NCBI RefSeq assembly: GCF_003334305.1
Contig: NZ_QOWS01000007.1
Length of the DNA stretch: 64,000 nucleotides
Source of the DNA: Escherichia coli
GTDB lineage: Bacteria > Pseudomonadota > Gammaproteobacteria > Enterobacterales > Enterobacteriaceae
Direction: 5' to 3' (one strand)
Below the pieces are notes generated by a model that was given only the letters and a program-made list of their open reading frames with translations, had not been told where the DNA came from and did no database searches. This document shows, piece by piece, positions 3,723 to 53,400 of this stretch. How positions within the stretch are numbered: the stretch's first letter is position 1; every line of letters starts with the position of its first letter. The translations under genes were made by a program, and so were the position numbers.

Positions 3723-4192
3723 TGAATCCACTGAAAGCCGGTGATATCGCACCGAAATTTAGCTTGCCGGATCAAGACGGAGAACAAGTTAATTTGACCG
3801 ACTTCCAGGGACAGCGTGTTCTGGTTTATTTCTACCCGAAAGCCATGACCCCCGGCTGTACCGTACAGGCCTGCGGCTTACGCGATAACATGGATGAGTT
3901 GAAAAAAGCGGGCGTTGATGTGCTGGGTATCAGCACCGATAAACCCGAAAAACTCTCCCGTTTTGCGGAAAAAGAGCTGCTTAACTTTACGCTCCTGTCT
4001 GATGAGGACCACCAGGTGTGCGAACAATTCGGCGTCTGGGGTGAAAAGTCCTTCATGGGCAAAACCTACGATGGCATTCATCGCATCAGCTTCCTGATTG
4101 ACGCTGATGGCAAAATCGAACATGTCTTTGACGATTTCAAAACCAGCAATCACCACGACGTTGTGCTGAACTGGCTGAAAGAACACGCCTGA
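3722..4192 (+). CDS. bcp: thiol peroxidase / peroxiredoxin Bcp
   Basis: 156-aa ORF with peroxiredoxin PGCT motif; ATG shares one nt with the gcvR stop (TAATG). Confidence 0.92.
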   Translation: MNPLKAGDIAPKFSLPDQDGEQVNLTDFQGQRVLVYFYPKAMTPGCTVQACGLRDNMDELKKAGVDVLGISTDKPEKLSRFAEKELLNFTLLSDEDHQVCEQFGVWGEKSFMGKTYDGIHRISFLIDADGKIEHVFDDFKTSNHHDVVLNWLKEHA

Positions 4193-4387
4193 TTACTTTG
4201 CTCCATTCCGTGCTGGCTGCGCTTGCGGCCAGCATACCTCACTTCTCGTGATCAAGATCACATTCTCGCTTTCCCCTGCGACACGGGTGTCGAATCCATT
4301 TTTTGCTGAACGTTAATGACCATCATTTTTGTACCGTTCAGAATCCAGTCAATACATAACTTATTGAATATATTGAGTTAATCAGAA

Positions 4388-4403
4388 TGGCATCCTTTAT
4401 GCA
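4388..4403 (+). promoter_or_regulatory. sigma-54 (-24/-12) promoter of the hyf operon
   Basis: TGGCAT-N5-TATGCA with GG and GC 12 nt apart, matching the TGGCAC-N5-TTGCA consensus, about 40 nt upstream of the hyfA ATG. Confidence 0.55.
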
Positions 4404-4444
4404 ATATGAAATGCAATGTTTCATATCATTTTCAAGGAGCCGAC

Positions 4445-5062
4445 ATGAACCGCTTTGTGGTGGCCGAACCACTGTGGTGTACAGGATGTAATACCTGTCT
4501 CGCTGCCTGTTCGGACGTGCATAAAACGCAAGGTTTACAGCAACACCCGCGCCTGGCCCTGGCGAAGACGTCAACACTCACTGCCCCTGTCGTGTGTCAT
4601 CACTGTGAGGAAGCCCCTTGCCTGCAGGTCTGCCCGGTTAATGCCATCTCCCAGAGGGATGATGCGATCCAACTCAACGAAAGCCTCTGTATTGGCTGCA
4701 AGCTTTGCGCCGTGGTCTGCCCATTTGGCGCAATCAGCGCTTCAGGAAGCCGTCCGGTGAATGCCCCTGCGCAATATGTTTTTCAGGCTGAAGGCTCACT
4801 CAAAGACGGCGAAGAAAACGTGCCGCCCCAACATGCATTGCTGCGCTGGGAACCGGGTGTCCAGACCGTCGCGGTGAAATGCGACCTGTGTGATTTCTTG
4901 CCAGAAGGTCCGGCCTGCGTTCGCGCTTGCCCGAATCAGGCGTTACGGCTGATCACCGACGATAGCCTGCAACGACAGATGAAAGAAAAACAGCGCCTTG
5001 CCGCAAGCTGGTTTGCCAATGGCGGGGAGGATCCCCTTTCCCTCACTCAGGAGCAACGCTAA
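4445..5062 (+). CDS. hyfA: hydrogenase-4 component A, 4Fe-4S ferredoxin-type subunit
   Basis: ORF 4406..5062; start at MNRFVVAEPLW after an AAGGAG RBS; multiple CxxCxxCxxxCP ferredoxin motifs; 205 aa. Confidence 0.9.
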   Translation: MNRFVVAEPLWCTGCNTCLAACSDVHKTQGLQQHPRLALAKTSTLTAPVVCHHCEEAPCLQVCPVNAISQRDDAIQLNESLCIGCKLCAVVCPFGAISASGSRPVNAPAQYVFQAEGSLKDGEENVPPQHALLRWEPGVQTVAVKCDLCDFLPEGPACVRACPNQALRLITDDSLQRQMKEKQRLAASWFANGGEDPLSLTQEQR

Positions 5063-9951: not shown

Positions 9952-11532
9952 ATGAGTTATTCTGTGATGTTCGCTTTACTCCTGCTCACGCCGCTGCTTT
10001 TTTCGCTGCTCTGTTTTGCCTGCCGGAAACGGGGGCTCTCTGCGACTTGTACGGTGACTGTATTACATAGCTTAGGGATCACACTGCTGCTGATTCTGGC
10101 ACTCTGGGTGGTCCAAACTGCCGCTGATGCAGGAGAAATATTCGCTGCGGGACTGTGGCTTCATATTGATGGTCTGGGCGGTTTGTTCCTCGCCATTCTT
10201 GGTGTGATTGGCTTTCTCACCGGTGTTTACTCGATTGGCTACATGCGTCATGAAGTGGCACACGGCGAGCTTTCACCCGTTACACTGTGCGATTACTACG
10301 GTTTCTTCCATCTGTTTTTGTTCACCATGCTGCTGGTTGTTACCAGCAATAACCTGATTGTGATGTGGGCGGCGATCGAAGCCACCACCTTAAGCTCGGC
10401 GTTTCTGGTAGGCATTTACGGTCAGCGTTCATCGCTGGAATCAGCATGGAAGTACATCATTATTTGTACTGTTGGTGTCGCTTTTGGTCTGTTCGGTACC
10501 GTGCTGGTATACGCCAACGCCGCCAGCGTTATGCCGCAGGCAGAAATGGCGATATTCTGGAGCGAGGTTCTTAAGCAATCGTCCTTGCTTGACCCAACAT
10601 TAATGCTGTTGGCCTTTGTGTTTGTGCTAATTGGCTTTGGTACCAAAACCGGGCTATTTCCCATGCACGCCTGGCTGCCGGATGCTCACAGTGAAGCGCC
10701 GAGTCCGGTCAGCGCCCTGCTCTCCGCCGTATTGCTGAACTGCGCGCTGTTGGTGCTGATTCGCTATTACATCATTATTTGCCAAGCCATCGGCAGCGAT
10801 TTCCCCAACCGGTTGTTGCTCATCTTCGGCATGTTGTCGGTTGCCGTGGCGGCATTTTTCATTCTGGTACAGCGGGACATTAAGCGTCTGCTGGCGTACT
10901 CCAGCGTGGAGAACATGGGGCTGGTCGCGGTGGCGCTAGGCATTGGCGGGCCGCTGGGAATTTTTGCCGCGCTGCTGCACATCTTAAACCACAGTCTGGC
11001 AAAAACGCTGCTGTTCTGCGGTTCCGGCAATGTACTGCTCAAGTACGGCACGCGCGATCTCAACGTCGTCTGTGGGATGCTCAAAATCATGCCATTTACC
11101 GCCGTGCTGTTTGGCGGCGGTGCGCTGGCGCTGGCAGGGATGCCGCCCTACAACATTTTTCTTAGCGAATTTATGACCATTACCGCCGGACTGGCACGTA
11201 ATCACCTGCTGATTATCGTCCTGCTGTTATTGCTGTTAACGCTGGTGCTGGCGGGCCTGGTACGGATGGCAGCGCGGGTGTTAATGGCGAAACCGCCGCA
11301 GGCCGTTAACCGGGGTGATCTCGGCTGGTTGACCACCTCGCCAATGGTGATTCTGCTGGTCATGATGCTGGCGATGGGAACGCATATTCCACAACCTGTC
11401 ATCAGGATCCTGGCGGGCGCTTCCACTATAGTCCTCTCAGGGACGCACGACCTGCCTGCACAACGTAGCACCTGGCATGATTTTTTGCCTTCAGGCACCG
11501 CATCTGTTTCGGAGAAACACAGTGAACGTTAA
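9952..11532 (+). CDS. hyfF: hydrogenase-4 component F, NuoN/M-like membrane subunit
   Basis: 526-aa polytopic ORF with motif [13 protein letters not shown]. Confidence 0.9.
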
Positions 11533-13786: not shown

Positions 13787-14541
13787 GTCCAGTGCTTACA
13801 CAACATGTCAGCCAGCCCATCACGCTGAACGAGCAAACGCAAAAGATGAAGCGGCATTTGCTACAGGATATCCGTCGCTCGGCTTACGTTTATCGCGTCG
13901 ATTGCGGCGGCTGCAACGCCTGTGAAATCGAAATTTTTGCTGCCATCACACCCGTATTCGACGCAGAACGTTTTGGCATTAAGGTTGTTTCATCACCGCG
14001 TCACGCCGATATTTTGTTATTTACTGGCGCAGTCACCCGGGCGATGCGTATGCCTGCACTTCGGGCGTATGAGTCTGCCCCCGATCATAAAATCTGTGTT
14101 TCCTACGGCGCGTGCGGTGTCGGCGGCGGTATTTTCCACGATCTCTACAGCGTCTGGGGCGGCAGCGACACCATTGTCCCCATTGATGTTTGGATCCCCG
14201 GCTGCCCGCCAACACCGGCCGCCACCATTCACGGTTTCGCCGTGGCGCTCGGTTTGCTGCAACAGAAGATTCACGCTGTGGATTATCGCGATCCCACCGG
14301 GGTGACTATGCAACCGCTGTGGCCGCAAATCCCGCCATCACAACGTATCGCCATTGAGCGAGAAGCGCGGCGGCTGGCGGGCTATCGTCAGGGGCGAGAA
14401 ATTTGCGATCGGCTCCTGCGCCATTTAAGCGACGATCCTACAGGAAATCGGGTTAACACCTGGTTGCGCGATGCCGACGATCCACGTCTCAATAGTATCG
14501 TTCAGCAACTCTTTCGCGTACTCCGGGGGTTACATGACTGA
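13783..14541 (+). CDS. hyfI: hydrogenase-4 small subunit (NuoB-like)
   Basis: 252-aa ORF overlapping the hyfH stop; NuoB-like cysteine motifs (CGGCNAC, GCPP). Confidence 0.9.
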
Positions 14542-14947: not shown

Positions 14948-14976
14948 GAAGGATTTCTCATTAATAAGGACTGTTG

Positions 14977-16989
14977 ATGGCTATGTCAGACGAGGCGATG
15001 TTTGCCCCGCCACAAGGAATAACAATTGAAGCGGTAAACGGAATGCTCGCGGAGCGGTTAGCACAGAAACACGGTAAGGCGTCTTTATTACGCGCCTTCA
15101 TCCCGATGCCGCCGCCGTTCAGCCCGGTACAACTTATTGAACTGCATGTTCTCAAAAGCAACTTCTATTACCGCTACCATGATGATGGCAGCGATGTGAC
15201 GGCAACAACAGAGTATCAGGGCGAGATGGTCGATTATTCGCGTCACGCCGTCCTTCTCGGCAGTAGTGGAATGGCGGAGCTACGCTTTATTCGCACCCAC
15301 GGCAGCCGTTTTACTCCCCAGGATTGCACACTGTTTAACTGGCTGGCGCGGATAATCACCCCGGTTCTGCAATCATGGCTCAATGATGAAGAACAGCAGG
15401 TGGCGCTGCGTTTGCTGGAGAAAGATCGCGATCATCATCGGGTACTGGTTGATATTACTAATGCAGTGCTGTCACATCTTGATCTCGACGATCTGATCGC
15501 TGACGTCGCTCGTGAGATCCATCATTTTTTCGGTCTGGCTTCAGTCAGTATGGTACTGGGCGATCATCGAAAGAACGAGAAGTTTAGCCTGTGGTGCAGC
15601 GATCTTTCTGCCTCACATTGTGCGTGTCTGCCACGCAATATGCCTGGCGACAGTGTATTGCTGACACAAACGCTACAAACCCGACAACCGACCTTGACGC
15701 ACCGTGCAGACGATCTGTTTCTCTGGCAACGCGACCCGTTATTACTCTTACTTGCATCTAACGGCTGCGAATCTGTGCTCCTTATACCGCTTACCTTTGG
15801 CAACCATACACCGGGTGCATTGTTGCTGGCGCATACCTCTTCCACTCTCTTTAGTGAGGAAAACTGCCAGCTACTACAACACATAGCCGATCGCATCGCT
15901 ATTGCCGTTGGCAATGCCGATGCCTGGCGTAGCATGACCGATTTGCAGGAAAGTTTGCAGCAAGAAAACCACCAGCTTAGCGAGCAGCTCCTTTCGAATC
16001 TGGGCATCGGTGACATTATCTATCAAAGCCAGGCAATGGAAGACCTGCTCCAGCAGGTAGATATTGTGGCGAAGAGCGACAGTACGGTGTTGATTTGCGG
16101 TGAAACCGGAACCGGCAAAGAGGTGATCGCCAGAGCGATCCATCAACTTAGCCCGCGACGCGACAAGCCGCTGGTCAAAATCAACTGCGCTGCCATCCCC
16201 GCCAGTCTTCTGGAAAGTGAGTTATTCGGTCATGACAAAGGGGCGTTTACTGGTGCGATTAATACCCATCGTGGTCGTTTTGAAATTGCCGATGGCGGCA
16301 CGTTGTTTCTCGATGAAATTGGCGATCTGCCGTTAGAACTTCAGCCTAAACTGCTGCGCGTATTGCAGGAACGGGAGATTGAGCGTCTCGGCGGGAGTAG
16401 AACGATCCCGGTAAATGTCAGAGTCATTGCCGCCACCAACCGTGATTTGTGGCAAATGGTTGAAGATCGCCAGTTTCGCAGCGATCTCTTTTATCGCCTG
16501 AATGTCTTCCCACTGGAATTGCCGCCGCTGCGCGACCGTCCGGAAGATATCCCTCTTTTAGCAAAGCATTTCACGCAAAAAATGGCGCGCCATATGAATC
16601 GTTCAATTGACGCCATCCCGACCGAGGCGCTACGCCAGTTGATGTCGTGGGACTGGCCGGGCAACGTGCGCGAGCTGGAAAACGTGATTGAGCGAGCGGT
16701 ACTGCTGACTCGCGGTAACAGTCTGAATTTACATCTTAATGTCCGACAAAGCCGTTTACTGCCGACGCTAAATGAAGATTCAGCGCTTCGCAGTTCAATG
16801 GCGCAGTTGCTGCACCCGACGACGCCAGAGAATGACGAAGAAGAACGTCAGCGCATTGTTCAGGTATTGCGAGAAACCAATGGCATTGTTGCCGGGCCCC
16901 GTGGCGCGGCGACACGATTAGGGATGAAGCGCACCACGCTGCTGTCACGAATGCAGCGTCTGGGAATCTCGGTTCGCGAGGTGTTGTAA
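14977..16989 (+). CDS. hyfR: sigma-54-dependent transcriptional activator of the hyf operon (FhlA paralogue)
   Basis: 671-aa ORF with AAA+ sigma-54 activator motifs ([14 protein letters not shown]) and a C-terminal HTH; start at the second Met. Confidence 0.9.
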
Positions 16990-50402: not shown

Positions 50403-53400
50403 TTACGGTCGGACAATCAGCAGATCTTCAGCCGCGCCGGTCGCCCGCCATTGGGGAACATACATTGATTCCACCATCGGTTGCGGTACCTGATACGTTC
50501 CCGGCGTCACCGCCCGCGCCAGATACACCAGCGTTACCGGTTGGTATTCATCAACGGCAACCGCCGCCACAAAGCGATCGTCACGGAACTCAATGTGCTT
50601 AATGCTCGCCTGCTGCATCTGGTTCAGTAAGTTTTGCACTTCGCCACCACTTTGCTCCAGGCTGGCGCTACCGTTCGCCAGATTCTGATTTTCCAGTTCC
50701 AGACCCGCAGGCAGCAGATCCACGACTAACGCATCCGGCACGCTGTTACTGGCTTTTACCTGCAACCAGACCAGCACCAGATCGCCGCTACGTAACGAGT
50801 CCAGCGATTTGCTCTTACCATCAGTACCAAGAATATGACGCTCGATTTGCAGCACATTGTTCGCCGGTAAAGGTGCGGATTGCGGATAACCGCTGGCATC
50901 CATACGCAACCATAACGGCTGATCGCCACTGTTTCTCACCTGCAAGGTGGCAAGTTGATCGCTATTCAGATTGCTGTTTAGCGTTTTCTCGCCTGTCAGC
51001 GGCTCAGCTGAGAAAGAGGTTTGCGCCTGCCATTTACCCGGTAAATCCTGAATCGTACGGGCAGCCAGGAACAACGCGTTACTTTCCTGCGTCGATAGCC
51101 AGCGTTCACCAAACGCCTGCTGCGAAAGTGTGTTCAGCAAAGTGTACTGCTCATCGGGTAGCAGTTTATTTTCTTCCAGCAAGGAGAGCATTAACGCGTT
51201 GTCGCGCAGTGGACTACCGTAATCACCCAGCCATATCCGCTCATCACTATTTCTCGGCGTTTTCAGCGCCAGCACAATCGCTTCTTCACCACGCGTTGCA
51301 TCACCCATGGTTTTCAGCGCAACGCCAAGTTGCAGCAGCGGTAAACCAGAAGCGGCATCTGCACGATGCTCCCAGATTTCACGCAGCGCACCCAGCGGAG
51401 CCTTTTGTTGACGGGCCAACACCAGCGCAGCGTAAGACTGTACGGCGAATTTACTGGCTTTGAGATTATCCGCGTACGGGATCGACATCATGCCCGGATC
51501 TTGTAAATAGCGCAGCAGACGCTCATTACCCCGGTTAATGGCGTCTGTCGGCACGCTGTAACCCTGTTCGCCTGCGCGGACCAGGAAATCCATCACGTAA
51601 GCCGTCAGCCAGTACTCTTCGTCACCGTTTTTATCCCACAGCGCAAAGCCGCCGTTATCACGTTGCATTTGCAGCAAACGGGAAATGCCGATATCGACCG
51701 ATGCACGGCGTTTCTCATCACTGTCGCCTTTGATGCCCAACGCCTGCAGTTGGGCTGCGTTGGTATAAAGTGACGGGAACAGGCCGCTGGCGGTTTGCTC
51801 AAGACAGCCGTACGGATACGCTTTTAACTCTTTGATATAACGTGCAATGTTCAGCGGTGGTTTGCCGCTCAACAACAATTGCCCTTCCAGCGTAACAGGC
51901 GAGAAGTTTTGCAATCCATCCGCCGGAATCGCCCATGTCTCACCAGGCTGTAACGCCGTACCGTAATTAACCGTTTGTGCCGGGAACGCCGGACGGACGC
52001 CGATTTTCCACTGCTTCTGCTGATCGGCAACGGTTTCATCCGGTAACGCTAACCCGCTAATGGTGGCCTGAATTTCTCCATCGCCATAACCCGGCAATGC
52101 TCGCACCGGGATAAACAGCGTAGTACGCACACCTGGCGCTAATTCAACGGCTGCGGGTGAATCGCTGACCAGTTCAAGCAAACCACTGGCGGTCAGGGCA
52201 ACGTTCAGTTTTTGCGGTTTATCGGTAAGATTAGTGATATCCAGCGTCAGACGCGAGGTATCGCCACTCGCCATAAAGCGCGGCATGTTCAGTTCAGCAA
52301 TCACCGGTGCGGCAACTATCACTTTGCTTTCGTTGCTACCGAAGTCATCTGCCGTCCAGGCTTGCGCCATGACGCGTAATTCACCGTTAAAATCGCCAAT
52401 CGGCAGTGTAACCGAGCCTTCGCCCTGTTCGTTGAGCGTTACCGGCAGCGCCTGCTGCGCGACAATATTGACGTGATTGACCGGCGGTTTACCACCACGT
52501 TTCAGCTCATCACCATCGCCACCGAAACGCAGAGCTGCCAGACGCCCCTGACCTTCAATAACCTGACCGTAAATATCGTAAATGTCTGCGCCATAGCGTT
52601 TCTGACCAAAGAACGCCTGCCACGGATCTGGCGTGACGTAGTCAGTAATATTCAGCACACCACTATCAACGGCAGACACCAGCACATTCACCTGTTTAGG
52701 CTTCTCGCCATTTTTAGTGCTGGCTTTAATTTTCACGGTTAATGGTTGATTGGGACGCATTTTTGCTGGTGTTTCCAGCGCCAGATCGAGGCGACGGTTT
52801 TCATCGCCAAGCGGCAGATGCAACACACCAACCGCGCGTTTTGGCGTCGCGGAGCGAGATTTATCGCCAGGACGTACCACCAGCGTACTTAAATACAGAT
52901 CATGACGATTCCAGGTTTTATCGACCGGAATCGTCAGATCCAGCCCTTGAGCCGGAACATCAATCTCTTGCCACCACAGCGGCCCTTCACTGGACTCGAC
53001 CATCGCATAACCTTTACCCGCCGTTGGCGCGGCGATATGCAACTTAATGGTGTCGCCAGGGCGATAACTGGCTTTATCCAGTTTCAGCGTGACACGGTCG
53101 GGTCGCACTGCGCCGCTACCGTCGCTGTTGTCCTGCCAGCTATAGCCAGCCCAGAAACGAACACTACTGACCGCTTCATTCGGCGCTTTGACTTCCAGAC
53201 GATAAGCGCCCCACTCTACCGGAAAACTGACCTTGCCGGTTTCGTCCGCTTTCAGATCCAGAGTTTGTTCATTTTCGATCAGATCTTTTTGATCAAACTG
53301 TGACTGCCAGCCTTCATCTTCTGACCAGTTCCAGTAGTAATCGCGGCGTTCGCGAATCAGGCGCACCTGCAAGCCCGACACGGCTTTTTTCACGCCTTGC

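Follow-up and report, generated by a model that had tools for sequence, protein, structure and literature searches.

The FhlA-dependent promoters of the E. coli formate regulon (fdhF, hydN-hypF, hycA and hypA) have in common with hyf a sigma-54 −24/−12 element, CGWCA/TGWCG half-sites clustered ∼60–130 bp upstream and an A/T-rich IHF-type region in between. The E. coli hyfA promoter (PhyfA) was reportedly described by Skibinski et al. 2002 and by Self et al. 2004. The former are said to have shown that the hyf promoter depends on sigma-54, FhlA and HyfR, that a hyf promoter fragment is shifted by HyfR and that primer extension places the start 30 bp upstream of hyfA. The promoter studied here is PhyfA as listed in EcoCyc: the locus and the −24/−12 element are the same and the promoter itself shows no difference. 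In E. coli the UAS regions belonging to fdhF (CGTCAAAACTGACG), hydN (CGTCACTAGTGTCG), hycA-hycB (TCGTCAAAAATGACA) and hyc-hyp are filled with half-sites like those at hyf. However, one clean palindrome with a GC-rich spacer stands at hyf where the formate regulon shows a dense half-site array, and hyf carries a CRP site and a lineage-specific 16-bp box, both of which the formate-regulon promoters lack. The hyf (FHL-2) promoters of other Enterobacterales (Citrobacter, Kosakonia, Atlantibacter, Dickeya, Morganella, Providencia, Sodalis) display the same order of palindrome, IHF-like site and −24/−12 element. In the nearer genera the palindrome lies at the same distance from the −24 as in E. coli, whereas the more distant lineages have CGTCA arms and A/T-rich spacers. 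Among hyf promoters the CRP site and the box are found in the bcp-linked lineage only. We read the feature as PhyfA, an enhancer-dependent sigma-54 promoter of the hydrogenase-4 operon with a putative activator contact at the palindrome (IR1) and an IHF-type bend, and assign this reading a probability of roughly 85%.

The window, i.e. the whole stretch of E. coli DNA that was analysed, comprises 64,000 nucleotides. The bcp-hyfA intergenic region is 252 bp long: bcp ends at position 4192 and the hyfA start codon, an ATG on the + strand (MNRFVV, RefSeq annotation), is located at 4445. A Shine-Dalgarno sequence (AAGGAG, + strand) can be read from the sequence at 4434–4439, or 4434–4447 when the hyfA start is included. 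We found a match for window positions 4150–4500 in 5,425 of the 5,426 complete E. coli genomes, and the matched region is annotated with bcp and hyfA. For ∼1,127 of the 5,425 genomes, including ST131, only the first ∼92–97 nt of the query were matched, which are the end of bcp. Those genomes are without this promoter and hyfA, and thus the hyf operon is missing from a large part of E. coli. For strain CUVET21-37 (NZ_CP115351.1, 1290956–1291323) the 351-nt query aligned as two pieces over 368 nt with 100% identity, which suggests a duplication or insertion of ∼17 bp within the bcp-hyfA region. Four E. coli alleles showed ∼14 polymorphic intergenic positions, none of which falls within the promoter elements described below, though this comparison is a low-power test.

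The initial annotation had placed three features in this intergenic region: a −24/−12 element and two inverted repeats, IR1 and IR2, proposed as upstream activating sites. All three sequences are present at the coordinates it gave. The region is rich in inverted repeats in general (10 compared to 3.2 expected); repeats of the IR1 class arose in 92% and repeats of the IR2 class in 35% of the shuffled intergenic regions. None of the three features exceeds chance by sequence alone, and the IR1 pattern taken alone is not significant across the 64-kb window. What makes them significant is where they lie, how well they are conserved and which published binding data cover them; this applies to the −24/−12 element and to IR1, and does not apply to IR2 as a repeat.

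For the comparison we scanned for HyfA with one genome per species and obtained 45 loci, a set that does not contain the species-representative E. coli genome. An alignment was built from the window and six loci with bcp synteny, namely Citrobacter amalonaticus, three Citrobacter sp. and two Kosakonia. Across these seven intergenic sequences we observed sharp footprints against a mean column identity of 72%.

The −24/−12 element TGGCATCCTTTATGCA occupies 4388–4403 on the + strand and ends 42 nt before the hyfA start codon. TGGCAT is found at 4388–4393 and TATGCA at 4398–4403, with the GG (4389–4390) and the GC (4401–4402) in the canonical 12-nt register. The element had been written as TGGCAT-N5-TATGCA, in which the GG/GC register is correct and the spacer is off by one: there are four nucleotides before TATGCA, or five before ATGCA. 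The site has one mismatch to TGGCAY-N5-TTGCW. One-mismatch matches to this consensus show no excess over chance in the 64-kb window (6 observed compared to 7.6 expected). With the RpoN matrix (186 promoters) the hyfA site scored 12.0 of 21.4 bits and ranked only 9th in the window, with several intragenic matches ahead of it. The higher-scoring matches include sense-strand sigma-54-like motifs within the hyf operon at 15401–15416 and 16799–16814 (both inside hyfR), 14243–14258 and 10997–11012.

Published binding data and orthologs identify the element as a sigma-54 site. The ChIP-seq site OS23 (Bonocora et al. 2015, PMC4591121) is reported as ATGGCATCCTTTATGCA on the + strand with hyfA as the downstream gene; this 17-mer is identical to window positions 4387–4403 and carries the flag 'C' for experimentally confirmed in EcoCyc. 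In the main-text tables of the same study hyfA is the sole entry from the hyf operon. The bcp>hyfA spacer is also among the strongest RpoN-holoenzyme gSELEX peaks, with 92%, and 100% with NtrC (Shimada et al. 2021, PMC8743547). Within the seven aligned promoters TGGCA (4388–4392), TT (4397–4398) and TGC (4400–4402) are invariant, and a −24/−12 motif lies upstream in 32 of the 44 hyfA-like loci examined. The sigma-54 promoter of hyfA is thus supported as annotated, and it was already published. Bonocora et al. (PMC4591121) predicted the start 31 nt upstream of hyfA, which corresponds to 4414–4415 on the + strand. We also noticed a palindrome, ATATGAAA-tgcaatg-TTTCATAT, at 4404–4426; it starts directly after the −12 GC and covers the transcription start, and the orthologs keep only AAYGTTT (4415–4421) of it.

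IR1 (CGACAcgggTGTCGA, 4279–4293) consists of CGACA-cggg-TGTCG at 4279–4292, and its centre is 103 bp upstream of the −24 GG. It has the FhlA/HyfR-type form, i.e. inverted CGWCA and TGWCG half-sites 4 nt apart, which IR2 does not show. In all six Citrobacter and Kosakonia orthologs CGACAC (4279–4284), TG (4288–4289) and CG (4291–4292) are invariant. Of the 32 hyf-type promoters with a recognisable −24/−12 element, 29 carry the pattern CGWCA-N4-TGNCG 40–170 bp upstream of the GG. Its density is 7.4 per kb in this UAS zone and 0.11 per kb in the remainder of these loci, a 66-fold difference. E. coli, Citrobacter, Kosakonia and Atlantibacter all keep the palindrome centre at −101 to −103 relative to the GG. 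In E. coli this form also turns up in the UAS regions of fdhF, hydN and hycA-hycB. The spacer of IR1 is rich in G+C (CGGG); at most of the orthologous sites it is A/T-rich. One further exact copy of the palindrome, at 52460 in the window, lies inside the yfhM coding sequence and we regard it as a chance match.

A de novo count of 5-mers, in which no pattern was presupposed, was run on the UAS zones of 13 independent lineages outside the E. coli group. The top 5-mer was CGACA/TGTCG, which is exactly the IR1 arm, with an 8.5-fold enrichment (p = 2e-19) and an occurrence in 13/13 lineages; GTCGA, GACGA and GACAC came next. In the E. coli hyf zone the enriched 5-mers are confined to IR1 and the start of the box. 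HyfR (window 14974–16989) and FhlA share 51% identity overall and a near-identical C-terminal helix-turn-helix, so that both activators would be expected to read an IR1-type site. Conservation and motif enrichment, together with the likeness of the two helix-turn-helix regions, support IR1 as a conserved activator-type palindrome and a candidate enhancer site of the FhlA/HyfR type, and thereby favour its earlier assignment as a bEBP upstream activating site.

IR1 stands out with neither of the two published FhlA site descriptors. The RSAT FhlA matrix gave 5.6 bits for IR1, a chance-level score. The 16-mer consensus CATTTCGTACGAAATG, as quoted in PMC4987338, matched IR1 at no more than 6 of 16 positions by hand and none of the best 16-mer matches fell on IR1. 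Genuine UAS regions also scored at chance: the true sites of fdhF and hydN reach only 7–8.6 bits with the FhlA matrix (PMC7658346, Table 2) and known UAS regions reach 9–11 of 16 with the Leonhartsberger consensus. We therefore rejected both as discriminators. The matrix is in effect a TGWC-N5-TGWC direct repeat and its best match in the hyf region is the CRP palindrome. As both descriptors perform at chance on the genuine fdhF, hydN and hyc UAS, a low IR1 score is uninformative either way.

Two further sites had been overlooked by the initial annotation. The CRP site CGTGATCAAGATCACA is located at 4247–4262, centred ∼159 bp upstream of the transcription start and upstream of IR1. The same 16-mer appears verbatim among the in-vivo CRP ChIP-seq sites of ETEC, where it is listed for hyfA (PMC4287617), and from genomic SELEX hyfA is already known as a target of CRP (PMC3105977). 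The palindrome is near-consensus, contains two GATC Dam sites and has half-sites (4249–4251 and 4257–4262) that are invariant in the seven aligned sequences. In Myers et al. this palindrome figures as a predicted FNR site that is not bound. The second site, ATTCAATAAGTTA at 4357–4369 on the − strand, is IHF-like and agrees with WATCAA-N4-TTR at 8 of 9 positions. Its core AA (4358–4359) and TGA (4365–4367) are invariant, as is C4355, and in a Citrobacter sp. we found a perfect IHF core, AATCAACTGGTTA, at the equivalent position. An IHF ChIP-chip signal has been reported at a site upstream of hyfA (PMC3688515 supplement).

There are other ways to explain the two inverted repeats. IR2 (CTGAACG-N22-CGTTCAG, 4306–4341) had been proposed as a genuine bEBP recognition element, with its two arms read by an activator dimer. 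It lies 47–82 bp upstream of the −24 and thus within enhancer range, its arms can be extended to 10 nt with 90% complementarity, and the 35% of shuffles that yield such a repeat are a minority; moreover its span shows zero polymorphism in the four E. coli alleles, which leaves room for some constraint. The orthologs, however, point the other way. The right arm CGTTCAG (4335–4341) differs in 6/6 orthologous promoters without compensating complementarity, and we found no consistent replacement repeat in these six sequences, only different accidental repeats or no repeat. The left arm CTGAACG (4306–4312) is kept only in C. amalonaticus and is E. coli-specific as a repeat arm, with G4308 and C4311 as its sole invariant positions. 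The 5-mers that are enriched across hyf UAS zones are absent from the arms, the 22-nt spacing of the arms differs from the N4 of the FhlA-type sites seen here and the conserved block is the interior of IR2 rather than the arms. A role of IR2 as a recognition element is very unlikely on this evidence; as a recognition element IR2 is not supported, and it appears to be a coincidental repeat whose arms are peculiar to E. coli and flank a conserved box. IR1 in turn could act as an RNA hairpin instead of a protein site, and serve the bcp transcript upstream as an intrinsic terminator or as a 3′ stabiliser. It is found 87 nt past the bcp stop codon, and a consensus scan with a loose pattern flags it as terminator-like (CGACACGGGTGTCG followed by AATCCATTTT), but its predicted hairpin amounts to just −4.9 kcal/mol (z = −0.04 relative to shuffles). 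In the orthologs a T to C change in the right arm of IR1 goes uncompensated and weakens the stem. The conservation tracks the DNA half-sites and not the base pairing, and the hairpin at 4210–4235 is far stronger (−20.9 kcal/mol, z = −5.1) and the likelier 3′ structure of bcp. With a weak fold and a stem that is not maintained in relatives we rejected IR1 as an intrinsic terminator and regard an RNA role as improbable in the extreme. The G+C-rich hairpin at 4210–4235 itself starts 18 nt past the bcp stop codon, is not followed by a T-tract and shows polymorphisms among other E. coli alleles. At the equivalent place in the Citrobacter orthologs there is another G+C-rich hairpin, with a T-run behind it.

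The block between the IR2 arms poses a different problem. The 16-bp box TGACCATCAYTTTTGT (4317–4332; TGACCATCA-Y-TTTTGT, also given as TGACCATCATTTTTGT) consists of two stretches, TGACCATCA (4317–4325) and TTTTGT (4327–4332), which are invariant in Escherichia, Citrobacter and Kosakonia. No other invariant block of the seven-sequence alignment is as long, and the conservation of the box goes beyond that of the −24/−12 element. Such a block could be a real enhancer, alone or together with IR1: a hyf-specific determinant for HyfR, which would act strongly on hyf and not on hyc, or the site of another factor. That it is confined at this promoter position to the bcp-linked hyf lineage and lacking in the fdhF, hydN and hyc-hyp regions of E. 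coli agrees with such specificity, and since HyfR and FhlA have an almost common recognition helix a further specificity determinant would be needed. The box also begins with AATGAC, which resembles an FhlA-type half-site (AATGA and ATGAC are enriched in other hyf UAS zones), and it is similar to AATGACAATCAC in the hycA-hycB UAS. Yet it is carried by one clade only, so that its conservation may in part reflect shared ancestry, and it contains the left half of no palindrome. Pectobacterium has hyfR and no box, which shows that the box does not accompany HyfR in general. A comparison by eye with the consensus sequences of Fur, ArcA, PurR, Cra, TyrR, NarL and FNR gave no fit: the matches in E. 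coli are not at the conserved positions of the box. An assignment to the 'silent' FNR site of Myers et al. was rejected because that site, GTGATCAAGATCAC, is the CRP palindrome. We consider an enhancer role of the box possible but rather doubtful, and tentatively put the box forward as a candidate undescribed cis element specific to bcp-linked hyf operons, which might be an asymmetric second contact of HyfR or the site of another regulator. In four distant loci the string TGACCATCAY recurs on the minus strand downstream of hyfA, at roughly equivalent places in the coding sequence (L015 3892–3901, L022 3862–3871, L035 3877–3886 and L038 3834–3843); presumably it is a conserved codon string unrelated to the promoter box.

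Under our preferred reading, an enhancer-dependent PhyfA, the elements are ordered from upstream to downstream as CRP site, activator palindrome, box, IHF-type site, −24/−12 element, start and hyfA. The sigma-54 RNA polymerase would be held as a closed complex on TGGCAT-N4-TATGCA (4388–4403) and would start ∼30 nt upstream of hyfA only upon remodelling by the AAA+ activator FhlA or HyfR. The activator may bind ∼100 bp upstream at the IR1 palindrome and would probably also touch the half-site-like start of the box at 4315–4322. An IHF-type bend at ∼4357–4369 could then bring the activator to the polymerase, and CRP at 4247–4262 would add catabolite control. Sigma-54 and CRP occupancy are shown by published data, and conservation and motif enrichment by the comparison made here, whereas we infer the contact of FhlA or HyfR with IR1, the use of the site by IHF and any role of the box.

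The promoter is already known and its architecture is an ordinary enhancer-dependent one, with the box as the single unexplained item. The modest value of the analysis is a comparative dissection, in which a real and conserved IR1 is separated from a coincidental IR2, and in the observation that both published FhlA site descriptors remain at chance level even on known UAS regions. The box is a mutagenesis target for two old questions, namely what lets HyfR and FhlA tell hyf from hyc and why the expression of hyf is so poor. If the box is indeed contacted, this second contact could explain why HyfR reportedly favours hyf over hyc although its recognition helix is FhlA-like.
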